Source of the DNA: Paecilomyces variotii
Taxonomy: Eukaryota
Direction: 5' to 3' (one strand)
Length of the DNA: 20,286 nucleotides
Assembly: GCA_004022145.1 (NCBI GenBank)
Contig: RCNU01000044.1
Position numbers and translations under genes: made by a program. The notes beneath the pieces are model-generated. The model had not been told where the DNA came from. It saw only the letters and a program-made list of their open reading frames with translations, and searched no databases. Shown piece by piece: positions 148 through 20,286 of the stretch; positions within the stretch are counted from its first letter, which is position 1; each line of letters opens with the position of its first letter.

Positions 148-906
148 TAAATAGCAGTATTCTTTCTTTTCTGCTAATTCTTTAATTTCTCTAGGCTTAC
201 TAGATAGTTCTTAAGAATATAGCTAATATAAATCCTATATTAGGACTCTAGTTTCTTTAAAGGTATTAGTCTAATTAAATATATCTATAGAGTCTACCCG
301 CTATTCTTAATTATATCTATATCTTTTTAAATTATTATATAATTAATCTATTATAGCTCTTATTAGCTATTTATATAGATATAATATATAGTAAGTAAAG
401 TAAATATTCTTAATAGGTTATTAGAAATTGTAGTATTATCTATTTCTCTAATTACTTACTTTACTTCCTTTTTTATTTTATCTAAAAATTTATCTATTAG
501 GTTAAAAAATAGCCTTTTATTAATTAGAGAGTTATTATCTTCTAATTCTTATATGCTTTCTATATCTATATCTATATTATTAGATATTATCTTTAGTAAG
601 GATTTAATTCGGACAAGTCTAGTTAATAAGATATAGATATTTAAAGAGATATCGGCGTTAAAGAGATATAGATATTAAAGATATTTACTTATTTAGTTAA
701 ACCTTATATTTAGTCTCTTAGTAAGGCTTTTATTAATAGGCGTATTAGCTCTAAATAGCTATTTTAAAGCTTAGCTCTTAAATTACTACCTATATCTTAT
801 TTTATTCTTAGGATTTAAACAGCTAATTTAGCTTATTTACTAACTTAAAGAAATAAAATAAAATAGCCTATTTAGCTTATCTATAACTTAATTATATCGC
901 TATATA

Positions 907-965
907 GGCATATACCTCGGCCTAGCCAGGGCCGAGCTCAGCCCACCCTAAGAGCTTAGCCTACC
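907..965 (+). repeat. Left terminal inverted repeat
   Basis: ggcatatacctcggcctagccagggccgagctcagcccacc... versus right-end reverse complement gggatatagctcggcctagctagggctaagcttagcccacc...; contains the hairpin ctcggcc-7nt-ggccgag (916-936) and two GAGCTCAGCCCACC-like motifs. Confidence 0.9.
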
Positions 966-1129
966 CTAGAGCTTATCCTTAGCTAAATTAAGCTTAACCT
1001 ATCTTATATATAGATTAAGTATAAGCTCAGCATAAGCCGATTATATAATTAATATAAGATTAGCCTACCTAAGAATTAATAATAATATTTATATAATAAA
1101 ACTCTTTAAAATTTGCAATATATATATAT

Positions 1130-4100
1130 ATAATAGCTAATATAAAGCTAAATATTATTATTTTTTCCCTAAATACCTAAAAATAGCTAAGAACTAAATA
1201 ATTATAACTAATAGCTAAGTTAATAGTATTCTTAGTTAATAGCTGCATAATATTCTTATCTAAGTATATTAATATAATTCTTATAGAGGCTTAGCAGACG
1301 CTAAATATATACTTAATATTTATTATATTTAAACTAGATACTAACTTACTATAGAGCGAATTTATATAGAACTATAATCTTTATAAAATATACCTAAACT
1401 AGTTTAAGAATATAATAAATAATTAAAATAGTATCTATTTCTATATAGAAAGCAAAAATAAAAAATTTAAAATATATCTTAAATTTCCTCTTTATATAGG
1501 ATTTAATTAAATATATTCTTTTTATATAAGTTCTAATAAGATATATACTAAATATATCCAGAAGGCTATTTTTTTTATAAATATTATTATTAGCCGCAAT
1601 AGTATCTCTGAGATTATAATTAATAATATTTAAGATAAGTTATTTATTCCTAAATATTTAATAATTTATTTTAATAGTATCTTATATTTTATTTACTAAA
1701 AAAATCTTTTACCTTATAACTATTCTAATATAAATATCTATTAAATATTTTAATAACTTTTATTAAAAATATATCTATACCTTATCTTAAGCAGATATTT
1801 AATATATTATAAATATATGCTAAGTATAGCTTAGATCTAGTTTAGGCTCTATACTTAAGGTAATTATAAGACTCTATCTCTCCTACTTCTTTAAAAGGAT
1901 AAAAAGGATAAAATTTAAAGTAAGGTATATTATTAGGCATATAAATGCAGTAATATTAAATATTACAAATATATATTAGAGTATATACTTAGATAACGCT
2001 ATAAATATAGCTATATTAAACTAAATATCTTTAAAATATTTTATAAAGAAGCAGGCTATATATCTAATACTACTTCTACTAGTAAATTTTTTAAAAAAGA
2101 AACTAAAAATTAATATAATAGATTTTTTTATTTTTAGAATTAATAATTAGCAGAGCATTATTTTTATCTAAAAAGTAAAATATAAGTATGCTTAAATTAA
2201 ACTCCGGTAATCTTTAAACAGCATAAAGTAAGTTTAACTCTATATTTAATCTCGGCATATACTAAACATATCCTTAACTACTAATTATCTTTATTAGTTA
2301 CCTATTAGCAAGTAATTTTAAATTATAGTATACTACATAAGCTATCTCTATATATATAGCTTAAATTTATATACTTTATCTATATATCTTAATAGCTTAT
2401 AGGATATATAATACTAATATTTTTATTTAATTTATTTATATCTATATTAACTATACTATTTTAAGGCGCACAACTTATAGTAGGTATTTGCTCTATATAT
2501 ATTAGGCATATATTAACTATAGGTCTAGGATTTAACTATTCTTAAGATATATCTAAAGTCCTATATAAAGAATATAATATTTTAATTAATATTTTTATTC
2601 CTTATAATTAGGATTATTTTCCTTTTATCCTTCTTATTTATTAAGAAAATTATATATATTTTCCTCTATTACTAATTAAGTTAAGTTAAGATTTTATTTA
2701 AGAACTTACAGATCTAATTAATTAAAGAGATATTCTTATTATAACTGCGCATATATTATATATATCTTAAGCCTGTATTCTATATATGCTAACTAGATAC
2801 TTATAGATAAATTCTTAATATCTCTTAAAGTATATATGTTTAAGCAAAAATATTAAAGTTAAGCTCTAAATTTAATTAGAGCTTCTTTAAATATTAAGGA
2901 TAAAATTACTTATTTAATTTAAAAATAAAAACTTTTATAATACTTATTTAGTTTAAATATTACTAGTTAGAATCTATTCTTATTATATATTTTATATATA
3001 CTAATATTATATAGAGGTTATATAAGAGTATAAGTTTAACTAATATAGAAAAAGTAATAAACAATAGATTTATATAGTTAATATTAGTGAAACTAGAGAA
3101 TATATTATTATTTATTATATAAATACTTAAGTAAAAGCATTTATAAAAGCTAAATATCTTAAAATAAATTTAGCTTATAAGATAATACTTAGAAATATAA
3201 ATATCTTTTTAATCTTAAGCTGGAATTCTAAAGCTAGATATATATTTAACTTCTCTTTATTATGCGTTTAGCATATGCTAACTTTATATTAGGGATTAAT
3301 ACTTATTACTATGCTTTTATCTCTCTATAAATTTATTATATATATTTTTAAATATTTAAATTACTATTTTAAATATTATTATAAGCTGTATATTAATATA
3401 TTTAATAGGCATATATTTTAAATAAAGAAGGGATATAGACTATTACTATAGATATATATAAGAAATAAGTATTTAGTTAGTATTATCTTAATAGATACAG
3501 AATATATACTAAATATATTTAGGCTTTAATAACTATTTATATTTTATTTATCCTTTCCTTAACTGGCAAGAATATCTTAAGTATATACTTATTTTTTGCT
3601 AAATATATATTAAACACAATTTCTATAAGAAGTTTAAAAGATCCTATCCTTTTATCTATTAACTAAAATATTTATAAGATCTATATTTTTACCAAGAAAT
3701 TCTTCAAACTATATATTAATAGGGTAAGGAATATCTAGATATTAAAAAATAGCTTTAAAATAAAATAAAACTATAGATTCTTACTATATTATTATAGGAA
3801 ATATTAAAAATCCCTTTTAAATAATAGAGTTATACTTAAAAGTATACTAAATTATCTAAAAGTAGTTACTTCTAAGATAATTATAATATAGGGAGAAACC
3901 TATTTTTACTAGGGGCTATTTAATAGTATATTTATATTTAATATATACTTAGTATCTGTCTAACATAGATTAAATACTAATAAGGCTAATTTATATTTAA
4001 TCTATAATAATATATAAAAGATATTATTAAATAATAAGAGCTTTTTAGCTATAATATTAATAATATATAGTAAAACTATAGTAATATTATATAAATCTCC

Positions 4101-5380
4101 TAATAGATATAGAGAAATAGTAAGATAAAAGTTTAATATGCCTTTAAATATATGCTAAATATATCTTTTAGACTAATAGAATTAAAGAGCTGCTAATTAT
4201 TAAATAAATCAATCTTATTTATTATTTAATCTTAATAATCCCTATAATATATCTTTAAATAATAATAATAATCGATCTTCTGATAAAGATATTAATTTTA
4301 AGGTTATTTTAATATCTTTATCTGAATCTTTTACTGAACATATACTAGCTAGAGATAAAATATCTATAAAGTATATACTAAGCAAAGATTAAGAAAGGAA
4401 TTAACCTAGAGGTTCTAATTATTATTAAAGCTAGGTTTAATTTAAGACTAAATAGACTAAGCTAAGCTTTAAAGAATTAGACTTAGATTATTATTTTTAA
4501 TATAAATTAAATGCAGAGTATATATTAAATAAAGGTTAAGAAAGGGGTTAATCTAAAGGTTCTAATTATTATTAGAGCCAGGTTTAATTTAAAACTAAGT
4601 AGATTAAGCTAAGCTTTAAAAAATTAGACTCAGATTATTATTTTTAACACAGATTAAATACAGAATATATATTAAATAGAGATTAAAAAAGGGGTTAATC
4701 TAAAGATTTTAATTATTATTAGAGCTAGGTTTAATCTAAGACTAAGCGGACTAAGCTAAGCTCTAAAGAATTAAACTTAAATTATTATTTTTAACGCAGA
4801 TTAAATACAAAATATATACTAAATAGAGATTAAGAAAGGAGTTAATCTAAAGGTTCTAGTTATTATTAAAGCTAGATTTAATCTAAGACTAAATAAACTA
4901 AGCTAAGCTCTAAAAAATTAGACTTAGATTATTATTTTTAATATAGATTAAGTATAGAGTATATATTAAATAAAGATTAAAAAAGGGGTTAACTTAAAGG
5001 TTTTAGTTATTATTAGAGCTAGATTTAATCTAGGACTAAATAAATTAAGTTAAGCTCTAAAGAATTAAACTCGGATTATATTTTTTAATACAGATTAAAT
5101 AAAGAGCATATATTAAATAAAGATTAAGAAAAAGATAGACTTAAAGATTCTAATTATATTTAAGGCTAAGTTTAATTTAATACTATCCTAATATCTAGAA
5201 GGGTTTAAATCCCTTTATTAAATTTAAATAGCTCTGCTAATTTTAATCTAGAGTATATACTAATTCTATATTTGGCATATATTATCTAGGAGTTAAGTAT
5301 AGATTCTAGATAAAATAGAGCTTATATATATTATAGCAGAGGACCCTTATTAGAAGAAATAGTAAAGACTAATTTTATTA
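1130..5380 (-). pseudogene. RIP-destroyed long ORF1 of the TIR element; N-terminal part carries 49-aa S/P/Q-rich repeats; product unknown
   Basis: The 147-bp array period is a multiple of 3 and runs in frame into an acidic Ser-rich stretch (de-RIP ...SVEDSDEDIEMTSESVSSSEDR...). Stops are RIP-type. Below ~4000 the frame is ambiguous and both ends are approximate. Confidence 0.45.
4370..5179. repeat. Tandem array, 147-bp unit, ~5.5 copies
   Basis: Anchor g(g/a)tt(c/t)ta(a/g)tt recurs at 4411, 4558, 4705, 4852, 4999 and 5146 (period exactly 147). The full copies differ mostly by transitions. Confidence 0.97.
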
Positions 5381-5591
5381 TTTAATTAAGAGAAATAATA
5401 AAATAAAGGTAATAAGAATTTAAGTAAAAAAGAGAAGGATTATTACAGCAGTTTATATAATAAATATATATATCTATATAGCTATAGTTATATAGTAAAT
5501 ATATATATATATTTCCTTTTCCCCTATAATAAGAATAAATAAAAAAATAAAGAATATTATATTACAATTATTTAAAGATATAAAAAAATAG

Positions 5592-5687
5592 TCTTTAAAT
5601 ATAAAAACTTAGTATTAAATTAAAGTTCAGTATTAATAATCTTTAAGTATAAGAGCTTAATATTAAATTAAAGTTTAGTATTAAATA
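5592..5687. repeat. 48-bp tandem duplication between the two putative ORFs
   Basis: tctttaaatataaaaacttagtattaaattaaagttcagtattaa (5592) versus tctttaagtataagagcttaatattaaattaaagtttagtattaa (5640). Confidence 0.85.
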
Positions 5688-5949
5688 TATACTTAGGGGA
5701 GAGCTGGGCTTAAATATCTATATATTTAAGGCCTCTAAAAACTTATCCTTAGAAGAGAAGATTATAACTTATAAATATAAACTTAATATATACTCTATAT
5801 ATAGAAGGGAAAAACTTATTAATAGACTTAGCACTACAGCTATTAATACTATAAAAATATCTATAACTATAACTATAAGTATAGCTATATTTTAATTTAA
5901 TTAGTATTTTTTTATTAGCAATATATTTACTTATATATTTATTATAAAA

Positions 5950-7520
5950 TATAAACTATCCGCGCTTTAATAAAATTAAGGTAGGACTTATATTATAATT
6001 TAGTTTAATATATATATAAGATAAATTAGAAAGCTATTTATTATTACTTTTATTATTATTATCTTATAATAATAAAATATTTTTAGTCTATATAAGGTTA
6101 GTATATATATAATATAGGCAGAGATATACTTATTACGCGCTTATAAGACAGGGTTAATAAAGATATAGAATGCTAGAATAAAGGCCAAAATTAGTTAAAA
6201 TTAATATTAGGTATATATTAAATATATTCGAAAAGCCTGCTAAAAGTTATAAATTATATATAAATAGTAATATAAATAGCAATATAAATAGCAATATAAA
6301 TAGCAATATAAATAGTAAAGAAGATAGTATATAGATTCTATTTATATATTAGCATATGCTAAACTTATTCTTTAATAAAACTAGCTCTTGTAGCTATTTC
6401 TAAACTTATTATTAATATAAGCTATTTTTTTATAAGATATAATAATATTTTTAATTAGTATACTTCCTATACTAGAAGAAATATTAGCTTAATATAAGCT
6501 TTATATATGCTTAAGACTTACTATAGTTTATAAATAAAATTAGTATCTTATTATTTATTAAATAAAATATATTTAATTAGCGCACTATATATTATTAGCA
6601 TAGCTTTAATATATATAGAATAGATCCTAAATTTATTATAGCTTAATTATCTTCTTATCTATAATTATATTACTAGTCTCTATATTATAGTTTAATACTA
6701 TAGCAGATTAATATATATCTAGTATATACTAAGAATAATAATATACTTGCCCCTAAGTATATAGTCCTTATATAGCATTATAACTTTAACTATTAGCATA
6801 TTATATATATATAGAATTTATATTAAACTTATAATAAGTTATAAATTAATAATCTTACCGCATATAAGTAGGCTATCTATATTTATTTATACTTAGCAAC
6901 TATAAAAGCTTAATATATGCTTAGTTAATTTTAAAAAAAGGACTTATATATTCTTATTTATGCTTAAGATAGAAAACCTAAGAGTTAATATATAAGTATT
7001 TTTTTTAGTAATAATTGCAGGCACTATTTATATTTAGCGCGCTTCTAATATATGCGCAATATCTATTTATTAAATTTCTTATTTTCCTGCTTAGCTATAA
7101 TATATAAGTTTAAAATCTATATTAGATTTAGATTAAAAACTAGGCCTATTTTTATTTAGCATATATTTAATATTAAGCAGAGATATACTTACTATAATAA
7201 TATCTGTAATTTATTAGATTATTTATTAATAAAACTATATTATAAGTAAGAAGTTCTTTTAAATATAATAGCATTTTTATAATTATATAGCAGTAATATA
7301 AGAGGGTAGATTATAATACTATAAAGGCAGGGCGAAGGTATTATTAGGGAGATTAAAGATAATATAAATAATATAAACTTCTATATAATAGGATTTTAAT
7401 ATTACTTTAGTATATGCTTAATAACTGCCTTTATATATACTGCCTTAATAAACTGCGCAGAATAATATCAGTTCTAGCTCCTTATATATATCCTAGTATT
7501 GCTTTAACCTATACTTAATA
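5950..7520 (+). pseudogene. RIP-destroyed putative ORF2 of the TIR element; product unknown
   Basis: The plus frame reads AEIYLLRAYKTGL...NARIKAKIS...YIRKAC, followed by an in-frame 12-bp repeat. Later it reads ...FFSNNCRHYLYLARF...RQGEGIIREIKD. Stops are TAA/TAG. No family recognised; boundaries approximate. Confidence 0.35.
6259..6318 (+). repeat. 12-bp minisatellite x5 (TATAAATAGYAA)
   Basis: Five direct copies; de-RIP could encode (H/R)EQQ repeats in ORF2. Confidence 0.9.
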
Positions 7521-7694
7521 TATATTATAATATAGTATAGAATATATACTATATATAGTTTTTAATAAATATAGTTTACTATAATATAATATAAAAACTT
7601 TATTATAAGTTATATAAGCTATATATATATTAAGCCTACTTAAATATTATACTAAAACTAACTTAATATCTAAGCTAAACCTAGATTTTTCTTA

Positions 7695-7753
7695 GGTAGG
7701 CTAAGCTTTTCAGGTGGGCTAAGCTTAGCCCTAGCTAGGCCGAGCTATATCCC
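7695..7753 (-). repeat. Right terminal inverted repeat
   Basis: Inverted copy of 907-965, followed by g and then the TSD atcgctatata. Confidence 0.9.
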
Positions 7754-8024
7754 GATCGCTATATATATAAAGTCTTAACTTAATAATCTATTGCTCTAAA
7801 TAGCAGATTAACTGCTTAGCTTACTAAGATATAGTCTATATATATAAAAGCTCTAAACAGCAGATTTCTTTACTTAGCTTTAGCCTTAAATAATAAGTTT
7901 TATTACTTAGCTTTCTTTTAATCTTTAAGTATTAGACCTAGTATAAAGGGGTATTTAAAATAAAAATATTATATTGCTTCTAGTATATAGGCTAGCTTTC
8001 CCGCTAATACCTAGTATTATCTTA

Positions 8025-8165
8025 TTACTTTAAGTATATTCTTAATATATTTAGCTAGTTCTTATATGTTTTTATAGTATCTATAACTATACTATTTTAT
8101 AAGATATTTTAATATTCTATCGCGGCCTTTAGCATTAAGTATCTTATTAACTTCTTACTCTTTAT
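8025..8165 (-). pseudogene. Chromodomain at the integrase C-terminus
   Basis: Reads E*EVNKILNAKGRDRILKYLIK*YSYRYYKNI*ELAKYIKN = de-RIP EWEVDKILDAKGRGRTLKYLVKWHGYGHHENTWEPAKHVKN, a classical chromodomain. Confidence 0.9.
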
Positions 8166-11100
8166 ATTATTTTATATTATCTAAGACTTAAACTAGTAGT
8201 TCTAGCTCTAGTTCTATATATAATTTATTCTATTTCTATAGAGATAGTAAGAATATATAGAATATTAAATATATTTAATATAAAAGAGGCAGTTTTAGGC
8301 AATAAGCTTAGGGGCTAATTTTAGCTAAGACTTTAAATAGACCTTAATACTTACTATCTAATTTCTTACTAGGTCTATTTATATATAGGTATTTAGTATT
8401 AAAAAGGACTTTATTACTAATTATAAACTCTATCGGCTTACCTAAAGATTTTTTAAGTATTTAATTCTAAAATAATAAGAGATATTTAACTAGCTCTTTA
8501 TATAGTTTCTAAAGGTCTTATATAAATTATATTATATTAGTATTACTATTAATAAAAACCTTAGTTAAGCTTAATAGTTTTAAGTATTTATTATAATAAA
8601 TAAAGAATAAGGATATTTTTATTACTGCCTAATAAGAGTTATTATAAGTATACTCTATAATTACTAATAGCTAAGCCTAATTATTTTATTACTAATTTAT
8701 AAATATCCTTAAATATTATTTTAATATTTAATTTAACTATTTTATTATACTATTAATTTAAGGGTAAAATATTATTAATAACTAATAGTTTATATTAAGG
8801 GCCTTAGCTAATATTATCTAAAAGCTTAATATAAATAGCGACCCTTTATCTAAGATAATAGATTTCTGTATATTATATAAATAAAATATATTCTTAATAT
8901 AGAGTTAAGTAAAGGTTCTTATATTAGTTTTTATAGAGTATATTATAAAATAGCCTATTCTGCTAAAATAGTTAATAAATACTAAGATTATTAAATAACT
9001 TAACCTTAAACTATTTATACTTTTAAGAAGTCCTAAAATAAAATCTACTGCTATATAATCCTATAGTTTATTAAGTATTAGTAGTGCTATTAAAATACTA
9101 TAATATCTCTGCGCTATTTTTACTCTTTAATATACTAAATAACTCTAGATATAGTCTGCTATTATTAATGCCAGTCTAGGCTAAAATATCTATTTTCTAA
9201 TTCTCTTAATTATAGAGTCCTTACCTTAATAGCTACTCGCTCTTAAGTTATAAAATTTATAAAGAATAATTAGCTATAATTCTTCTATAAAAATATATAT
9301 TTTAATATAGTTATAATAGAAAATATTATTATTTTTATCTTAATAGACTTTTAGCTAGGCTTATATTATTATCTTTATCTCCTTAATATAACTGTGCTTT
9401 ATCCTATCCTATAGAGATATATTCTATCTCTAGTCTTAATCTGAAGATAAGTCTTATAATAGTATCTTAGAGTACTAGTATCTCTCTATATATTATATTA
9501 CGCTAATCTAGAGGAGTTATATTAATATATTCTCTAGTCTCTATTATAATTTATAGTTATTATAATATAATAGGCTATTAGCTAAGTTACGCTTCTTAGG
9601 TCTATATTTAATACAGAAATAAAATTATAAGAGATATTTTATTTATTTAGCTTATTTTTAGAATAAGATCTATATTATTAAGAAATGTTTTAAATTATTA
9701 TAGTCTATAATTACTTTAACTAGTTTAGCTATTTTAATTAAGAAATATTTTTAAACTTTAAAGGTATTAATAATAGTAAATAATTCTTGCTTATATATTA
9801 GCTATTATAACTTTATATCTATAAATTTTGCGCTATAAAATATAATAGAATATTATACTTTATTCTTAAAAAGCTAGCTTAGTATCGCTAATTTAGTAAA
9901 CTTACTTATATTAGTCTCTAATAAATACTATCTATTTAGGTTAAAATACTTTAATAATAGCGCCTCTATAAAGCATTTCTTAAGTATTTAAAAGCTTATC
10001 TAGGCTTCTTCTCTCTATATAAATAATATATTATATTTTATAAGTTAAGTTAATAGAAAAGTAATATAATTATAATATTTAATAAAATAATAATAGAAAT
10101 TACAGAAACTAAAAAATTAAACTAAACTTATTATTAATATTAGCGTAGGCTAAGTAGTAATAGTCTCTATTTACTGTTTATTTATTACTACCCCTTAGAG
10201 TATAATTATAAAACCTAAGAATATAACTCTATTAATAGAGAATAAATATTTTTTTAATTTATAAAACAGGTTATTATCTAATAAGCTCTAAAGAACTACT
10301 CTTATATACTAGGTATAAAGCTTCTTATTACAGCTAAAGATAAATATATTATTTAGATATATTATGCAGTATTTATTAATATACTGTCTAAGTATTAAAT
10401 CTATAAATGCCTAAAATATTGCTGGGGCATTATAAAGACTAAATAGTATTACCCGCTATTTAAATAGTCTATATCTTATACAGAAAGCTATTTTTTACTT
10501 ATATCCCTTTACTATATAGATTAAATAGTACGCTAAGTAGAAGTTTAAATAAATAAAAATAACTGCATTTTATAGCCTTAAGAACAGATTATCTATTATT
10601 AAGACTAGGTATTTATTCTTAAATATCCTCTTATTAATAGCCTTAAAGTCTATATAAAGTTATAAAACTCTAAATGCTTTAGGTATAAATAATAGTAATA
10701 AGGCGCATAGTATATTAGAGGGTTAAATATATTCGCGTTTTAATCCTTTATTAAAAAACTTATTAAGTAATTTTAACTCTTGCTCTAATAAATAATAATA
10801 TAGCTTATATAATAATACCGCCCTTTTAATAAGGTTAATCTTATAGTTAATACTTAGTCTCTATAAGAGTAAGTACTTTACCTTCTTCTTACTAAATATT
10901 TAGGCTAGATTTATATACTACTATAGTATTTTAATAGTAACTAAGTCTTCTTTATCCTTTAAATTTATTATTGCTATTAGTAAGCCTAAATAAGGCATAA
11001 ATATAAACTCTTTTTTAATATTATCTTTTATATTTTCCTTTATTTCTATTATATATTCTATTTTAAGAAGCTTTTATTACTTAGCTAATTACTCTAAGAT

Positions 11101-11265
11101 AGTTTCTCTATTCTAATTAATTAATAGATTCTCTAATATTAACTATAGTAAGCTAAGAATTATATTAAATACTATTAGTAATACTTTAAACGCATAAAGT
11201 TCTATTTCTTTACTTAATATTATATAATATAATTTAAAGTAATACTTTATTAGTTTAGCTAGCTC
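8166..11265 (-). pseudogene. pol: Chromovirus pol relic: protease C-half, reverse transcriptase, RNase H, integrase
   Basis: RT: RVILFSLYNAPAIF*AFID...YCIIYLNNIFIFS (MPFGLCNAPATFQ...YLDD; YLNN at 10348-10359). RNase H: ETNISKF (ETDAS, ~9900-9920). Integrase: L*DYIAVDFILGLL (PW..IAVDFI.GLP, ~9030-9065) and FYP*INS (FHPQTDG, ~8750-8770). PR end: FNIILSLL*L (FDVILGLPWL). Confidence 0.95.
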
Positions 11266-11760
11266 TAGAGTGGTTACAGTAAACCGAAAAAACCGAACCG
11301 AACCGAACCGAACCGCCCATGGTTTAGTTTGGTTCGCTTCCTAGTAAACCGCGGTGCGAGTCTACCAGAACCGAACCAAACCGGTGGTTTTTGGTTTAAA
11401 CCATTTGAACCGTAATTTTAACCTCGTATTTAAATTACACTATGTAATTTATCGATACTTATATCGGAGGTATAAAATTACTATAGTATTTAGTATATAT
11501 AATAAAAATATATTAGAAATCGGTAAATTACAGTATTGTAATTTTCGCTTATTTATCCTAATATAGCTAGAGCATAGTTATATAACCGGATCTAACTTAG
11601 GTTAGTAACTAATTATGCCGATCCGGTTTTTTTAGTTTTAAACCGAACTACTAGTATATAGTTCGGTTTAGGTATGGTTTATCTGCCCCGAACCGAAAAC
11701 CGCTACGGGCGGTTTAACTCCCCCCCTAAACCGAACCGAACCGCCTATATAACTACTCTA
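11266..11760. mobile_element. 495-bp non-autonomous hAT-type element (MITE)
   Basis: 13-bp TIRs tagagtggttaca (11266-11278) / tataactactcta (11748-11760), plausibly from ancestral CAGAGTGGTTACA. Perfect 8-bp TSD GCTAGCTC (11258-11265, 11761-11768). Subterminal AACCG arrays at both ends. An 8-bp TSD, short (C/T)AG TIRs and subterminal repeats are hAT hallmarks. Confidence 0.92.
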
Positions 11761-13030
11761 GCTAGCTCTATATTATTAATATCTTATATCTCTAATAGTA
11801 AGACTAGTCTTAATATTAGGTAAATCCCCTTAATTTATTCTATTATTATTATATTAATATAGTTTATATTTATACTACTATTAATTAATACTATTAATAA
11901 TATAATACTCTCCTTAGCTAATAGTGCCGTAATTAAAATAAATACTTTAATCCTCTTAAATATTAGTATATAAGATAATAATGCTTAAATTTATATAATA
12001 CTTGCATTATTTGCTAATATTATAATAGTATTTTATTTAAGCTTATTTTAAGAGGAATAGGCCTTTAGAATTAATTCTTCCTCTAATTTTTTATATCTGT
12101 AGCTTCTGCTAATTAAAAAGCCTTTAAATATTATTTTTTCTAATAGCTCTTTTCTCTATATCTTAAATAAAGGCTCTTATTATATTATCTCTTCTACTCC
12201 TTATTAAGTAAATTATATCTTTTATTACTATAAGAGATCTATAATAGTCTTTTATAATCTTATTCTTACCCCTTATTATTTATTACTATTTCCTTATTTA
12301 GTAACTAGCTTTATATATTAAAGAATTTACTTAAACTAAAGTAATTATAATAGCCTTAAGGCGATTATTCTATATAGTATTTTCCTTCTTATATATAGAG
12401 TTCTGCTTATTAGGCCGCTTATTTCTATTTTATATATAAGGCCGGAGAATAAGTAAAATACCTTTAATATATCTTATAAATAATATATAGCATTAGCTTA
12501 TAGCTAAATATATTACTTAATACTATATTATTTTAATCTAAGTCTACTATAATAGTTTTAAATTTATTAATAATATAGTAAGAAGAACTAGTATAAAGAA
12601 TATAATTAGTTAAGAGATTATATGCTTTTATTTAAAGTTTTTAAAAAGTCTATAAGTAAAGCAGGAAAGGAAGAAGGATAGTAAGAAGATAATACCTTTT
12701 AATTATTTAAAATAAAATAATTAGCTTTTTTTTTATTATTATTTAGTATTAGTTTAGTATTAGATTATTATTGATTTACTATATTAGTCTATAGCTAGAG
12801 CTTCTTCTTTAACTCTATTCTAAGCTCTAAAGCTAAATACCTTTTTTTTTTTCTTAATATTTATTTGCTTAAAAACTCTATATTAAGTTTTAATATATCT
12901 TCTTATAATAAATTAGAGCTAAATATAAGGAGTATTAAAATATTAAATAAAAATAAGAGAGAAAGGAAAATTAGAAGCTAAGGTTAAAGCTAAAATTAAG
13001 AAAAGGGGTAAAAAGTAGTAAAAAAATAAA
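11761..13030 (-). pseudogene. gag: Chromovirus gag and protease N-half relic
   Basis: Aspartic protease active site VLINSSININYIN (ALIDSG..NYID) near 11855-11895. Gag-like NKFKTIIVDLD*NNIVLSNIF (EF......L.WND.AL...F) at ~12510-12575. The protease frame rejoins across the MITE. Confidence 0.8.
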
Positions 13031-13399
13031 TAAAATAGCTAAAAAAAATTACTATTATAAATAAAAAGAGATAAATATATTTTTTAAATTAGTAGAGATA
13101 GTAAATATAATATAGGATAAAAATATATATTAATAATAAGAGAAAAAAAAGATTACTAAATATAAAGAAAAGCTTAATAAATATAAAAAGAAAGCAGAAA
13201 TTTAGAAAAAATAAAAAATTATTAAATAAGAATTATTTATTAAAAAATAGAAGAATTTCTTATTATTATCTTTATTACTATTTTTTTAAAAAAATATAAA
13301 GAAAAGCACTAATCTTTTTAGCGCTAGTTAAAATAAAAGGACTCTTAGCTCTTTAGTATTACTAGATTTAAAGATATAAATAGCTTAAGTATTTAAAAA

Positions 13400-15600
13400 T
13401 GCAGGATTATTAATAATATAGTTAATTTAAATTATATTAGCTCTATAGATATTAATACCTAGAAATCTTAGGGTATTATATTTTAAAGGGGATAATATTA
13501 TTTATTATTTAAGGCTTTTTAAAAGGCTATATAAGGCGAATTAACTCTTAAAAGAGGAAAAAACTAAATAATTTATAAACTATTATAGCCTATTAGTATT
13601 ATTATAAATAAATATTTAATTTAAATATAAAGAGAAGAATTACCTAAAATTAGCAGAAGTAATTAAATAAGAATATACTTATTATAATAAATACTAAAGG
13701 AAATATAATATCTAATAGCTAAAAAGATTTAAAAATATAAAATATAATAGCTTTAAGGACCTAAAAAAATATAATTAAGAATATTAAGCTATATTAGAAG
13801 CGCTGGTAACTTTAAATAAGTTAAGCTAATATTTATAGAAAGTTTAATATTTTTAAAAACTTTTAAAAAAGCTTAAGCAATAAATAGTTTAAGAATTAAA
13901 TATAGACTATTATACTCTATTTACTATTAAATATATTAATTTCTATAAAAAAATAGTAGATAGAATAAGAATAATTAAAACTCTTTATTATCTTAATAAT
14001 AGTAAACTAAAGAAAGATTAAAATATAATAGTTTTAATAAAGGAGAAGATAACTAAAAAAAATAATATATAATTTTTTATTAAACCTAATAAAATTTATC
14101 TAGATAAGAATAAAAATAAGGCTAAATAATAGAGTACTAAAGTAAAGTTAATAAAGCAGTTATAGATTAATTAATAAAAGAGTTTAAGAAGTTAAAACTA
14201 TATAGTATATAATATATAAGGAGGCCTAATAATAATATACTTAATATTAGTATAAATATATAAGCTAAAGTACCTTTAAGATTTAACTTAACTAGAGGAT
14301 TTAAAATATCTCTAAACTTATATAACTTCTACTAGGCTTTTAATTATATTTAATTTTATTATTTAAATTTAAAAAGCCTCCTAAATTAGAAGCTTATCTA
14401 TTAAAAAGAAAACTATAAACTTTACTTTAAGCTAGAAAGATAGAATAGAGAAGTTATTTATTTTATATAGGGGAATATATTATAAAAAGAAATTATTAAA
14501 TAAAGACTAAAGAAAGAGTAAAGGAATATTAGCTTAATTAGGTATAATATCTAGTTAATTATGCTAGGATAATCTGGGAATAACTTAAGCTCTAAGAAAG
14601 AAGCTAGGGATATTATAGAAAATTACTATTCTATTAATATAATAAGATTAAATAAGCCTTAAGAAATAAAAAAAAGGTAAAATAAGATTAAATAATTATA
14701 TAAAAAAAATTACAAAAAGTAATTAAATAGGAATAGAGATTTCTTTTAATTAAGATAAATTAATTTAATAATTATTAGCCTCTAAGTATAACTAAGAAAG
14801 TAAAGATAATTAAAGAAGAAATAAAGAATATACCTAAATAAAATAAGAATAAAAAGATTATTAAAATAAAAGAGAAATAAAAGTTAAAGAGGTTTAAAGT
14901 TATAGATAAGCTAAAAGGGACTATTAATATAATAGGGGTTATAAACTAGATATTAGATATTAGAGTTTAAATATTAATTTAAGATCTTATTAATCTATCT
15001 CTTAATTTATATAAGGCCTTATTTACTTTATAATTATAATAAATAATAATAAAGGTAATATTTTATAATACTAAAGGAGTACAGTTTAATGCCTTTATAT
15101 TAAATATAGAGTATAGTAAATAGTGCAGATTAGTATACTTATATATTCTTATAATTTAAGCCTCTTAATAAAGATAAGATATTATATATAGCTATAACTC
15201 TAAAATTGCTAATTAAAATTAATAATTATAAGGAGGTATAAAATATTATAATAGATAGTAGAGCTAAAATTAATATAATATATAGAGATATAGTAAATTA
15301 CTATAAATTTATTATAAGCTAAAAATTTAAAGATAATATAATATTAGTAAATAGTAAGTAAACCTCTTTTATAGATCTCTATAAAAAGATACCTATATAG
15401 ATAAAATCTTTCTATTATAAGGTCTCTTTTTTTATAGTAAATAATAAGATTAACTATAATTATATTCTAGGATAGCCTTTTAAGTATTAAATATATTTAT
15501 AGTATATTGCTTTATTAAATAGGATAATAAAGAGTATAATTTACTTTATAAACTAAAAGAATTAAGCTATTATTTAGGTATTTTTAATAAATAACCTAAG
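13400..15600 (+). pseudogene. gag: gag-protease relic of the plus-strand Gypsy element
   Basis: PRNLRVLYFKGDNIIYYLRLFKRLYKAN (PG.PG...F.G.NIT.YL..FE.LC) at ~13457-13540. Protease IDSRAKINII (IDSGAEIN; DSG at 15254-15262) and NYNYILG*PF near 15450-15480. Confidence 0.75.
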
Positions 15601-15899
15601 AAATAAGTTAAGAAAAGAAGTATTACACAATCTATTATTCTAGATATAAGAATTATTAAACTAGAGTTAAAAAAGAATAATAAATATTAGACTAAAAATA
15701 GAGAAGGCCTATAAAAGCTATACTTAATAAATAATATTAGTTTTAGAGTGAGTAAGGAAATTAAAAGTAAAGAAATAAAGATATTTAAACTTATTAAATT
15801 AAATAAAGGAGTTAAAATATTATAGAGGTATAAATTATCTAAAAGATATAATCTTTTTATTATAAAAATAAAATATTTTATTAATATATAATATAAGAA

Positions 15900-18800
15900 G
15901 AAATATAAAAAGGTTTATTTAGTAAATATATTAAATAGACCTATAATAGCTCTAGAGAGGTTATTAAAATAAAAAGAAATTATTAGAGAGTATTATTACA
16001 AGAACCCCTAAAAAAATATAAAAGAAATATATAAAGGATTTATTAAATATATCTAGCTAAAAATATTAAATATTAAGAGAGAAATAAGATTAATACTAGA
16101 CTATCTGAAGAATCTTATTATAAGTAATAATTTATAGCTAAAAAAGAAAAAACTATTAATAGAGGTATTTTTCGCTTAAAAAGCAGTCCTTACCTAGATT
16201 TTTAAAGAGATTAAATAAATATACCTAAAAATTATATCTTCAATTATTATTTAGACTATAGATTACAAATTATAATAGGTAAAAAGCTTCTTAATATTAA
16301 AGGTATTTTATAATATAATATAAAGAATAGTAAAAGAGAGAATAAATATAAAGATCCTTAAATATAGTTAAAGACCTTACTAAAATCTATAGTTCTTAGT
16401 AAAAAAGAAAAATAGCAAATATTAGCTAATTAATATAGTTATAGAAGTTAATTAAGTAATAATATAAAATACTAATCTACTTCTTTTAGCTAATAAATTT
16501 TTAAAAGAGTTTAGTAAAATATTAGTATTAATACTTATAGACTTATTCTCTAGATATAATTAATTAAAGTTAGCTAAGGAATTATAAGACTTAATAGCTT
16601 TCTATATATTAAAGATTAGTTTAATTTATTAAGCTAGACTATTTTAAGAATAGATAAATATAATATAAAAGTTTATATAAGAAATTATAAAAATATTAGC
16701 AGATAATATTCTTAATATCTGTAATATATTTTTAGATAATATACTAATATAAGGACTTAAGATTAATTATAGGAGAGAAGAGACGCTGCTAAGAATTAGA
16801 AGGTTTATATTTAAATATATCTAGAATATTAATAAGATATTATATAGTCTTAAATTTATAAGTTTAATAATTATTAGGGAGAAATTATAATTTATAATAC
16901 TAGGAATTAAAATAGTAAGCTATATATATAATATTAAAGAGAAATATCCTAAGTTAGCTAAAGTAATTAAAATCTTAAAATAGCTATTTTATTAGAACTT
17001 ATAGAAAGTAAGAGGATTTTTAGGGATTATAGCCTATTATTAAATATAGATTAAAGAATATATTATTAAAGCTAAGCTAATATATTTAATATTAAAAAAG
17101 AGATAAGATTTCTTTTAAAGGCTAAAATAATAAGAAGTAATAAATATTTTAAAAATAGCCCTAATAATAGTATTAGCACTTAAGCTAATTAATTATAGAG
17201 AGGGAAATATAATTATTATTAATATTAATACTAATAGTAATAAATAAAAGGCTTAACTTACTTAAGAAAAAAAGGAGTTTAATAAGAGATACTTAGCTAG
17301 ATATAAAAGTAAAATATAGATATAGGCAAAGAGGTAATATAATAGAGAAAAGCTAGAGTATAGGGCAATATTAAAGATGCTTTATAAATTCTAAGTATAT
17401 TTATATAGTATATATTTTTAACTAAAGATAGATATAAAAACTTTAATAATATAATTAAATAGAATAGCTATAGACCTCTCTAGGTTAATAATTACTTAAT
17501 AGATTATTTAAATTTAGCTATTTAACTTTAATATTATCTATATATTAAGGAAAAAAAATTTAGTTATAGATAGGTTATTTTAAAAGCTAATAATAGAGCA
17601 AGATCTAGAAGAGGCAAAAAATAATAATATAAAGGAATTCTTAGACCTATAGTTTTATACAGTTTATTATACTAATATATAAGAGGTAAAATTAAATAAT
17701 ATCCCTTAATTAATACCTATATTATATTAGTTAAAAAAGTCTTTACTAATTATAGAATAGTTATAAACTATAATAAAACTAGATAATATAGATAGAGGAT
17801 AATATACTAAGTTTAAAAAAGAGGCCCTAAAATATATAATATAAGATAGTATGCTTTTTTAGAGAGTATAATAAAATTAGCCTTACTATATAATTATTAA
17901 TAATAAGAAAAAAATAAAAAGAAATTTTTATAGCCCTTTATAAAGAGTATAGATATTATAAATATAAAGTAATTTATTAAAAGATAGCTGATTAATATTA
18001 GTAAAAAGGCTTATATAAGTATATTACTAGATAAATAAAGATATATAATAAATATTAAAAAGCAGATAAAGAATATATAAAAGAAGCTTTATAATTAATA
18101 TTTATTTTACTAAAGAGATTAAAGCTATATCTAGATATTTATAAGATTATACTGCCTAATAAGAGAAAGATTTATATTACTATATTTTAGGATAATTTTA
18201 GCTAAGTTAAATATAAAGCCCTTAATAATCTTATTTTAAGAGCTATTACTAAGTTTTTATAAGAAGATTAAATTTATTATTAAGGAATAATAGAAACTCT
18301 TATTAATAATAAAGAATTAGAGAATAAAGCTATAATTAATATATTAGTATAGAAGTATAAGATTAATTATATTAAAGTCTTACTATATAACCTATAAGTA
18401 AATAAAGTAATTAAAGTTATATATAAGTCCTTTATATATAATATTAGAAAACTTATAAAAAGAATAGGGGTAAAAATAAATAAACTATTTATTAGCAGTA
18501 ATTTAAGCAAATAGAAATATAGTTAAGATCTCTATAGGCTTAATACTATTTAAAATAATTATAGGATATAATACTATACTACTAATTAAATTAGAAATAT
18601 CTATTTAGAAGATTTTAATATAGGATAAGATTAAGACTATAAAAGATCTTTTATTCCTTTATATATAATAAATAGAGCTCTAAGATTAAGATATAGAAGA
18701 GGCCTAACTTTATATTTAATATATAAGAGAAGCTAATAAAAAAGTCTTTAATAATAAGAAATAGTTTTATAAAAAACAATTAATAGAAGAATAGCTTATT

Positions 18801-18985
18801 CTGCTTTATAATATAAAGCTTAAGATATCTTATTTTATAAAATTAGTATATTACTAGCTTAAATTATATAAGATTAAAGAAGTCTTTAAGAAAAGATTTT
18901 ATAAGCTTAAGGAATTAAATAATATACTTTTTAGGGACCTAATTTATAAAAATTATTTAAAAGGCTATTATTTATAAGAAGATTA
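15900..18985 (+). pseudogene. pol: pol relic (RT, RNase H, integrase) of the plus-strand Gypsy element
   Basis: RT: IDLFSRYN* (IDLFSGYDQ, ~16537) and FLDN (FLDD, 16729-16740). RNase H: NINTNSNK*KA (TDASG.GWGA-like, ~17221) and ARYKSKI* (ARYESG.W). Integrase: INNKELENK (VDGG.ENK, ~18302), VLLYNL*VNKVIK (SPYNPQANG.IE, ~18377) and *LKLYKIKEV (WLGPY, ~18855). Confidence 0.92.
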
Positions 18986-19290
18986 AAATAAAATATTAAC
19001 TATAAGTAATAATATAATATCTAAGTAAGAAAATTAATAATTAAGTAATAATAATAATAATACAGACTAAATATTATTTAGATTAAAATATATAGTTATT
19101 ATTTTAATATTCTCCTTTTAAAAATATTAGCTTAAAAGGAGGAAAGTAAAAAACTAGTAATAAAGTAAGTTTAATATTAAGTAAGAAATTAGTTTAAAAA
19201 GAGAAGAAATAAAAGGATAATAATAAAATAAGTACTAATATTATAATAAAAAGAAAAGGAAGATAAACTTAAGATAAGGGTGTTTTTTTT

Positions 19291-19305
19291 AGAGAAGAGG
19301 AAGAA
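19291..19305 (+). promoter_or_regulatory. Candidate PPT of the plus-strand element; the 3' LTR probably starts at about 19306-19308
   Basis: Purine run agagaagaggaagaa after a T-run, ~300 bp downstream of the integrase end. No second LTR copy to confirm it. Confidence 0.5.
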
Positions 19306-20286
19306 TTTAAAGATACCTAATAATAATTAAAAAAGAAAAAAAAGAGAGATAACTAAAAAAATATATAATATTAGCTTAAATATCTTAAAAAGGTCTATAA
19401 ATAAAGCTAAAAATAGAAAATATTAGATAAAGAATATAAGCAATAAATAAAGAATTCTTATCTTATTATAAAAACCTTATTTTTTATATTATATAATATT
19501 ATAATAAAAATAATTAGAGACTAAATTAAGCTAAACTTAATCCTATTTTACCTTTTAAATATATTTTTTTACTTAAAAACTATTTTAAAAAATTATTTTA
19601 TAAAGATATATATTAAAAATAGAAAAAAATATACTAAAAATATAAAATATTATTTATTAGGATAAAGCTCTTTAACTTAGAATATATATATATACTACAG
19701 TTAGCAAAATTTATAAGCTTATAAAAAAGATAATAAGTAAGGCTAATAATAAAGAAAAAAAGATTTAGTTTATAAATAATATAGCAGTAATTATTTTAAA
19801 TTTTTAAAGCAGGCATAATAAAGCAGCTAATAATTTTTATAATTTTTTAAACTAATAAAAGCTATTAAAAGAAATAAGAAAGAAAAAAGTATTAGCTATT
19901 AATAAGCTAAAAGAATTAAAAATATAAATAGAAAAGAATTATAAATATACTAATAAAGATTACTATAAAGCTATAGAGAAATAAAATTAAAAGATTATAG
20001 ATTAAGTCTTATTAATTATTAGATAATTATATTAAATCTTAATAACTATAAAAAGATTAATATCTAATACTAGAGATTAGAGAATAGCAGCTATATATCT
20101 AATAAAATATAAGTTAATAGACTTTATAATATTAAGAGATAAAAAATATTAATTAAAAAGAGTCTTTAACTAATTAATATTAGAAAAATAAAAGATATTT
20201 TAAGAAAAGCCCTTAGTAAAAAAGGATTAATTTTTTAAAAGCCTATTAATAAAAAGCTATAAGAGGTTAAAATAAGAATAAAAAAA

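Follow-up and report, generated by a model that had tools for sequence, protein, structure and literature searches.

A RIP-inactivated transposon, probably of a divergent Mutator/IS256-like lineage, in a gypsy retroelement of Paecilomyces variotii

We analyzed a 20,286-nt stretch of Paecilomyces variotii DNA (contig RCNU01000044.1 of assembly GCA_004022145.1; hereafter the window) and found that positions 907-7753 are very probably a copy of an autonomous-type cut-and-paste transposon, destroyed by repeat-induced point mutation (RIP), from a divergent fungal lineage of the Mutator (Mutator-like element, MULE)/IS256 type. The insert encodes a transposase, which, as judged from the model of a relative, is an RNase-H-fold DDE enzyme with a CxxH motif, and whose closest solved structure is that of ISCth4. 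An earlier note on this DNA, made from the letters alone, had described the same stretch as a transposon that has terminal inverted repeats (TIRs), two divergent genes and no recognisable transposase.

Results

Boundaries of the insert

The longest of the 2,933 inverted-repeat pairs in the window consisted of two 67-nt arms at 904-970 and 7690-7756, which were 82% complementary. When the arms were aligned inward from 907 and 7753, 50 of 60 positions were identical, and seven of the ten mismatches were transitions. A 28-nt pattern for the core of the TIRs matched the window at only two places, 916 on the plus strand and 7744 on the minus strand, and matched in none of 100 shuffles. An exact 11-bp direct repeat, ATCGCTATATA, was found directly outside both arms as the target-site duplication (TSD); the base between the right arm and its TSD copy (7754, G) is either part of the element or a filler base. 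The TIRs of about 60-64 bp, at the short end for MULEs, are built from a sub-motif of 18-bp period, AGCTYAGCCYACCY, which matched six times at 914-1070 (plus strand), three or four times at 7694-7746 (minus strand), and 20 times in the whole window against 6.7 expected.

These results bore out the imperfect TIRs of about 59 bp, the TSD of 10-11 bp and the internal length of 6.85 kb given in the earlier note, the insert being 6,847 bp long. Together with the pol gene in the flank, they also confirmed a TIR-bounded DNA transposon inserted in a gypsy element, and the TSD length, which that note had compared with those of MULEs and AcademH elements, pointed correctly to the MULE type. When the insert and its flanks were compared with the remainder of the window, only low-complexity noise resulted, and an exact TIR scan of the metagenome collection gave no matches.

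A transposase gene damaged by RIP

The window is AT-rich (GC 0.19 overall and 0.14-0.28 per 500 nt) and carries the signature of RIP, with observed/expected ratios of 0.21 for CpA and 0.15 for TpG and a TpA/ApT ratio of 1.36. The index (CpA+TpG)/(ApC+GpT) was 0.27 in the whole window and 0.40 within the insert. The longest stop-free frame in 800-7900 was 81 aa or less, and a Pfam search of the six stop-masked read-through frames of the insert found nothing. Models of stop density and of codon usage, the latter trained on the neighbouring gypsy pol, detected no long open reading frame (ORF) on the minus strand above Markov nulls, and the sole excess in the insert was a slight one in one plus frame. 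Both measures were dropped as frame guides, their best insert segments being no better than Markov nulls.

The plus frame with the weak excess (+1; 1208-4807; 1,200 residues with stops written as X) was searched with phmmer against 1.84 billion representative proteins. The search returned 13 proteins (P0001-P0013) at E<=1e-3. Three short proteins, P0001 (E 1.7e-41), P0002 (2.5e-41) and P0003 (3.5e-12), were 46-55% identical to the query frame, and the remaining matches formed a wider fungal family that includes P0010 (969 aa), P0008 (566 aa) and P0005 (599 aa). We called a mismatch RIP-explainable if the database residue has a codon that can reach the window codon via C>T or G>A changes only. 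This was the case for 136 of 141 mismatches with P0001, 85 of 89 with P0002 and all 51 with P0003, against shuffle means of 32, 18 and 11. Identical and RIP-explainable codons together made up 98%, 98% and 100% of the aligned codons in these three, and 53-58% of positions in the distant members P0008, P0014 and P0010. This result indicated that P0001-P0003 are the un-mutated form of the inserted element.

With tblastn and with a hidden Markov model (HMM) search using the family profile, every transposase match was on the plus strand (Table 1). The offset of P0003 places the start of the gene near 1274. Wherever the frame switches, there are some 45-70 additional nucleotides carrying intron signals: a CTAAC or CTAAT branch-point motif followed by YAG occurs at about 2790, 3000 and 3280, and the stretch at 3469-3522 has only ACTAAA. 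The gene is likewise split into exon-sized ORFs in relatives without RIP. In P0008 the family signature consists of D178 (E[IM]DLxFKM), D254 (TVTVDM), C287xxH290 and E374 (TESSHF). The window codons mapped for D178, H290 and E374 now read N, Y and K, and all three are RIP-type changes.

In the last transposase exon the true frame is denser in stops than either of the other two plus frames (15.8% over 3100-4360), since Q and W are abundant there. In RIPed DNA, stop density thus misleads as to the frame.

Fold and class of the transposase

A first AlphaFold model, of P0010 with 11 alignment rows, was too poor (mean predicted local distance difference test score, pLDDT, 50.6) and was replaced by an AlphaFold2 model of P0008. 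The alignment for the latter had 137 rows, with P0008 first, seven other family proteins and 129 exon-level translations from metagenome loci. Its mean pLDDT was 76.5, rising to 86-98 over residues 130-370. The model places D178 and D254 on strands of a mixed sheet and puts E374 where a long helix begins.

The earlier note had proposed a Foldseek check for an RNase-H-fold DDE core. We ran it with the P0008 model against the PDB, and all five matches with E<=1e-3 were chains of the ISCth4 transposase. The best, 6xg8_A, had E 2.5e-4, probability 1.00 and TM-scores of 0.30/0.40, followed by the integrase of PFV (1.1e-2) and Hermes (2.2e-2). VIA-align of the model against 48,161 representative chains gave 6xg8_A as the only match with Z>=8 (Z 10.2; 219 residues, model residues 121-397, root-mean-square deviation (rmsd) 5.3 A), with Hermes (6.3), SIV integrase (6.3), RAG1 (6.1) and the P element transposase (5.8) as runners-up. 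ISCth4 is a member of the IS256 family, a group with transposases similar to those of eukaryotic MULEs; it has catalytic residues D175, D241 and E348 and makes 8-bp TSDs, according to excerpts of PMC7780238. MULE TSDs are 8-11 bp in the excerpt of PMC6446971.

Neighbours in the ESM Atlas, which serve as a lead only, agree with this placement. The top three clusters scored 0.95, one of them being named 'MULE transposase domain-containing protein', and all lower rows carrying a Pfam family were MULE, SWIM or ZSWIM1-3. A C/DxxH motif after the second Asp is reportedly (Hua-Van and Capy 2008) a signature of the Mutator superfamily.

The hAT and P elements, too, have a CxxH motif and, within the RNase H core, an all-helical insertion; Hermes and the P element transposase are among the structural matches, and one relative of the insert (L027 in Table 1) has an 8-bp TSD. 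That the element is hAT- or P-like rather than Mutator-like is nevertheless extremely unlikely. Both structural searches ranked ISCth4 well ahead of Hermes, and VIA-align placed it far ahead of the P element. Pfam reported no hAT dimerisation, THAP or other hAT or P family in 26 family proteins, and the two 11-bp TSDs found in this family exceed the usual hAT/P length. For hAT the TSD is usually 8 bp, and 5-7 bp in some lineages, in the excerpt of PMC12730594.

In the same Pfam scans no other transposase family passed, and neither KDZ nor Plavaka families appeared at cut-offs of E<=0.1 or E<=1. No helicase or Academ-type domain was reported in the six insert frames, in the family proteins, or in the second-gene regions of three relatives (L003, L015 and L018).

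Related elements in metagenomes

Two conserved peptide patterns were used to find metagenome loci of the family. The transposase is encoded at 33 loci, and seven of them are bounded by inverted repeats, are about 6 kb long and have TIRs of 44-69 bp (Table 1). The tips of these relatives read GGGnTTACAGCTCGG (GGGTATCAGCTCGG in L003), to which the left tip of the window element, GGCATATACCTCGG, is homologous. In each relative TIR the tip is followed, as in the window, by a lineage-specific motif of about 13 nt in two or three direct copies. A TSD of 8-11 bp was found in four of the seven elements with both flanks, the window included, and in three of the six relatives with readable flanks.

Some copies differ in their content. 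In L019 (3138-3664) the right tip lies only 526 nt past the transposase match; this copy is without the second gene described below, and one-gene and two-gene forms therefore coexist. On two short contigs, L008 and L022, the terminal motif copies GGCATACAGCTTGG (L008:127-140) and GGCATATAGCTTGG (L022:144-157) closely resemble the window left tip and lie near the start of a transposase match that begins at query residue 336. These two may be internally deleted copies.

A second, convergent gene of mini-exons

Four relatives (L003, L015, L018 and L029) have in common colinear blocks on the opposite strand, 3' of the transposase (tblastx sum E 2e-45, 2e-54 and 8e-29). This second gene (ORF2) consists of 9-10 mini-exons of 12-28 aa, which keep a constant order in ten loci (L003, L015-L018 and L026-L030). 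The L003 mini-exons are parted by canonical GT...AG introns of 46-51 nt. Pfam found nothing in the ORF2 regions of L003, L015 and L018.

A RIP-aware scan was needed to find ORF2 in the window, since tblastx of the relatives' ORF2 regions against it detected nothing and plain exon HMMs detected exon g only (6598-6527, E 0.01). The scan covered every position on both strands, about 40,400 positions, and placed exons a, d, e, f, g and i (Table 1). All are on the minus strand, colinear, and no more than 70 nt from the places predicted by the L003 spacing; exon g set the expected places and is thus not independent support. With the transposase on the plus strand and ORF2 on the minus strand near the right end, the two genes converge.

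Between them lies a 147-bp minisatellite, whose units differ by 208 transitions and 8 transversions. The un-RIPed counterpart of this array is P0001. Simple repeats follow: a (TA)n run occupies 5454-5512, and at 5587-5684 there is a 48-bp unit repeated twice.

This gene map differs from that of the earlier note, which had proposed a minus-strand protein of about 1,400 codons and a plus-strand protein of about 500 codons, reading away from each other from 5400-5900. Neither long ORF exists as such, since no stop-free frame exceeds 81 aa. By homology the long gene maps to the plus strand and the second gene to the minus strand near the right end, and the pair is convergent instead of divergent. 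That no transposase is recognisable held only for Pfam applied directly to the RIPed frames; phmmer against a large protein library did find one. An unclassified or cargo-carrying non-autonomous TIR element with divergent ORFs and without a transposase is, accordingly, a very improbable explanation of the insert. The Pfam blank in six read-through frames speaks for it, as does the GC skew, which goes from weakly negative in the left part to positive in the right part. Pfam is poorly sensitive under such RIP, though: in a control on the flanks it missed RVT_1 and rve in the adjoining gypsy element, so that the blank on the insert is a weak negative. The homology-based positions of both genes (1355-3920, plus strand; about 7256-6348, minus strand) and the codon-usage and stop-density models argue against divergent ORFs, and a non-autonomous cargo carrier is contradicted by the encoded RNase-H-fold DDE transposase with CxxH.

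Table 1. Features of the transposon insert and its surroundings in the window, and boundaries of related metagenome elements
Feature	Position	Strand	Basis or remark
TSD, left copy, ATCGCTATATA	896..906	.	identical to 7755-7765
Left TIR, tip GGCATATACCTCGG	907..970	+	then direct copies of 18-bp-period sub-motif AGCTYAGCCYACCY to ~1070
RIP-inactivated multi-exon transposase gene, probably Mutator/IS256-like DDE	~1274 to at least 3920	+	phmmer, tblastn, family-profile hmmsearch
Transposase blocks, 5' half	1355-1696, 1508-2125, 1841-2239 (= 1355-2239), 2284-2475, 2477-2800	+	tblastn/hmmsearch
Short intron at frame switch	2228..2297	+	GTAAGT ... ACTAAT ... TAG; exact boundaries inferred
Further intron-like extra stretches	~2768-2806, 2944-3014, 3257-3292, 3469-3522	+	exact boundaries inferred
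Transposase blocks, 3' half	2806-2943, 3017-3256, 3295-3465, 3522-3920	+	last block profile i-Evalue 3e-22
Codon aligned with first catalytic Asp (P0008 D178), now Asn	3167..3169	+	coordinate computed from tblastn alignment
CxxH motif (P0008 C287-H290), now C-stop-I-Y, H to Y	3597..3608	+	alignment
Codon aligned with catalytic Glu (P0008 E374), now Lys	3858..3860	+	alignment
147-bp minisatellite, ~7 units, between the two genes	4218..5252	+	each unit with RIPed GCATATGC copy
Simple repeats, intergenic	5454..5684	.	repeat scan
ORF2 remnant, mini-exon gene	~7256..6348	-	RIP-aware scan
ORF2 exon a	7256-7185	-	rank 1
ORF2 exon d	6898-6830	-	rank 12
ORF2 exon e	6786-6748	-	rank 1
ORF2 exon f	6695-6636	-	rank 16
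ORF2 exon g	6601-6518	-	rank 1
ORF2 exon i	6422-6348	-	rank 4
Right TIR, reverse complement begins GGGATATAGCTCGG	7690..7753	-	inverted-repeat alignment
TSD, right copy	7755..7765	.	11 bp, matches left copy
Interrupted host element, RIPed Ty3/gypsy pol	7786..11439	-	Pfam RT_RNaseH_2 and SH3_Tf2-1; one low-stop frame spans the stretch
Relative L003	182-6127		TIR 52 bp, 98%; TSD 11 bp, GGAAAACCTGC
Relatives L015, L016, L017	~6.12 kb each		TIR 63-69 bp; TSD ambiguous in L015, none in L016 and L017
Relative L018	3932-10066		TIR 44 bp; right end = contig end, no right flank for TSD
Relative L027	~9361-15421		TIR found by alignment; TSD 8 bp
Relative L029	~2763-8826		TIR found by alignment; TSD 8-9 bp

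A palindrome shared by the introns

The 8-nt palindrome GCATATGC recurs throughout the element. In L003 all 33 sites are inside the 5.9-kb element, and none is in the 7.8 kb outside. With a looser 7-mer, the counts inside and outside were 74 and 2 in L003, 80 and 2 in L018, and 56 and 0 in L015, of which only 285 nt lie outside. There are about 30-45 copies per element, mostly intronic: most sites are next to the branch point, or overlap it, in the 46-51-nt introns of the two genes, and the others are in the intergenic repeats. Of the seven 1-kb bins of the window that are mainly insert, six held 10-21 RIP-degenerate forms of GCATATGC per kb and one (4001-5000) held 7, against 0-5 per kb elsewhere.

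By their sequence, the introns of L003 look like one family built around the palindrome. GCATATGC might act in cis as a binding site for the transposase or the ORF2 protein, or it might form a hairpin in the pre-mRNA; if so, it would link splicing with transposition control. Another possibility is that it marks introner-like introns, a family that spread within the transposon. Symmetrical intron families are known in Hypoxylaceae (stwintrons; PMC8469720), and nothing there matches the GCATATGC motif.

The interrupted retroelement and the rest of the window

The right flank of the insert is a minus-strand Ty3/gypsy pol (Pfam RT_RNaseH_2 3e-8, SH3_Tf2-1 5.8e-7). The earlier note had named the host a chromovirus; Pfam supported the Ty3/gypsy pol and gave no match for a chromodomain in this flanking element. 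The insert and one TSD copy (907-7765) together measure 6,858 bp, that is 3 x 2,286, so that the gypsy reading frame to the left of the insertion is also the one to its right.

Upstream of the gypsy pol, at 11270-11760, there is a patch with GC of 0.27-0.30, which is rich in AACCG/CGGTT motifs, contains a short palindrome (about 11640-11669) and has kept CpG despite RIP. A second RIPed retroelement occupies 12500-20286, where RT_RNaseH matched weakly (E 0.0084) at about 17218-17452 of the plus strand. Its plus strand is strongly purine-rich, and at the nucleotide level it is not similar to the first gypsy element. A tRNA scan of the window found none.

Discussion

Placement of the element

We filed the insert as a divergent lineage of the Mutator superfamily because the core fold of its transposase is IS256-like and because its anatomy is Mutator-like in its TSD, sub-repeat TIRs, convergent genes and minisatellite. 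Several points weigh against this placement. The best Pfam MULE (PF10551) match, in P0005, had E 0.047 and 14.6 bits against a cut-off of 27.6, and it was the only one among 26 family proteins (one of ten in the first set, none of 16 further proteins and exon translations), in which Pfam also reported no SWIM, CCHC or other zinc-finger family. The ISCth4 match has modest TM-scores and an rmsd of 5.3 A, and the class is assigned from fold, motif and anatomy; it is in view of the failed MULE threshold that we call the lineage divergent. Three two-ended contigs have no usable TSD (none in L016 and L017, an ambiguous one in L015), the RIP-aware scan of the window did not detect exons b, c and h, three of the nine in ORF2, and the evidence from the source genome is this one copy. 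As for the three contigs, which carry the same multi-copy element with short flanks, we assume that they may be chimeric metagenome assemblies.

These points would in part suit a separate, unnamed DDE superfamily, sister to MULE/IS256 and having only the ancestral RNase H core and the CxxH in common with it. The Pfam MULE model fails on 25 of 26 proteins and is below threshold on the other, the family profile gave only noise (E>1) against PDB sequences, and the N-terminal region and ORF2 match no family. The listed public names are hypothetical proteins of Blastomyces percursus, Penicillium argentinense, P. alfredii and Polytolypa hystricis and an uncharacterized protein of Pseudomassariella vexata, and no listed public member has a precomputed Pfam domain. 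We regard a sister superfamily as unlikely, since the best structural match is specifically an IS256-family enzyme, well above hAT, RAG and P, and since the ESM Atlas neighbours with a named family, as a lead only, are MULE-type. Moreover, the excerpt of PMC6446971 gives as features of MULEs TSDs of 8-11 bp, TIRs of tens of bp, an antisense second gene and a minisatellite after the transposase.

The placement in a divergent Mutator lineage thus agrees with part of what the earlier note had anticipated. That the family escapes standard domain models was confirmed by the single sub-threshold Pfam match and by the public names. A match to a MULE-type transposase, which that note had set against an unclassified family, was present in fold and motif and absent at the Pfam threshold.

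A bolder and more specific proposal is that this is a dead copy of an undescribed deep Mutator/IS256 lineage in ascomycetes, invisible to Pfam, with convergent MuDR-like genes, a GCATATGC intron family and a motif shared by the minisatellite. We put it forward tentatively, as a possibility that we would not yet favor. Our literature search, in whose scope Repbase was not included, found no paper describing the family.

Proposed life history of the copy

The intact element, as we reconstruct it, is about 6-7 kb long, with TIRs of 44-69 bp, each having a conserved 14-nt tip and then two or three direct sub-repeats as likely binding sites of the transposase. It carries two convergent, intron-rich genes, for the DDE transposase and the mini-exon ORF2, parted by the minisatellite. 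As the family type suggests, the TIR-bound transposase would excise the element and join it to staggered cuts 8-11 bp apart, and repair of the gaps after joining would yield the TSD. The present copy landed in the gypsy retroelement as an autonomous-type element. Later RIP, with C to T and G to A changes throughout, put stops into every exon, replaced the catalytic D, H and E by N, Y and K, and left the copy dead.

Significance

A RIPed transposon that resembles noise, with no ORF above 81 aa, a blank Pfam result and a misleading stop density, can still be assigned. The working methods were the search of a stop-masked frame against a very large protein library and the test of whether mismatches can be explained by C>T and G>A changes. 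A fungal Mutator-type lineage is thereby added which surveys based on domains would overlook, and such surveys would therefore count too few MULEs in ascomycetes. The conserved ORF2 and the GCATATGC palindrome can be tested for putative roles in transposon regulation or in the origin of introns.

Comparison with known systems

AcademH elements have TSDs of 9-10 bp (excerpt of PMC10045372), which overlap the 8-11 bp of this family. They differ in type: no helicase or Academ-type domain was reported in the window frames or the relatives, and the core of the family is IS256-like.

The KDZ (Kyakuja, Dileera, Zisupton) and Plavaka elements are, like this family, fungal DNA transposons that often go unannotated. 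Pfam holds models for KDZ and Plavaka, and the only Pfam match of the family proteins is the one weak match to MULE. The target sites differ as well, Zisupton having an 8-bp TSD and Plavaka one of 2-3 bp with TGT or CATCA termini, as given in the excerpt of PMC12730594.

ISCth4 of the IS256 family (PDB 6XG8, 6XGW, 6XGX) is the best structural match to the catalytic core, and the spacing of its catalytic residues, D175, D241 and E348, is like that of D178, D254 and E374 in P0008. IS256 is to bacteria what the Mutator elements are to eukaryotes. Unlike the fungal element, ISCth4 is bacterial, 1.5 kb long, with a single intronless gene and a copy-out/paste-in mode. Sequence identity in the structural alignments is only 11-15%, and the fungal protein is about 400 residues longer at the N-terminus and also has a C-terminal coiled coil.

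With the Mutator elements and MULEs, above all those with two genes, such as maize MuDR and Mutyl of Yarrowia, the differences are that the family transposase falls below the Pfam MULE threshold, that no SWIM, CCHC or FLYWCH finger family was reported in the family proteins, that ORF2 has no Pfam match, and that both genes are split by 46-51-nt introns sharing the central GCATATGC palindrome. TSDs of 8-11 bp, TIRs of tens of bp and a DDE transposase with CxxH after the second Asp are common to both, and the two genes of MuDR converge, as do those of the insert. An opposite-strand second gene is found in both: the excerpt of PMC6446971 describes MutB of Mutyl as antisense and mentions mudrB. 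The same excerpt lists a minisatellite after the transposase ORF for the group of MULEs hosted by invertebrate animals, noting it for aphids, and the window element has its minisatellite at the corresponding place.

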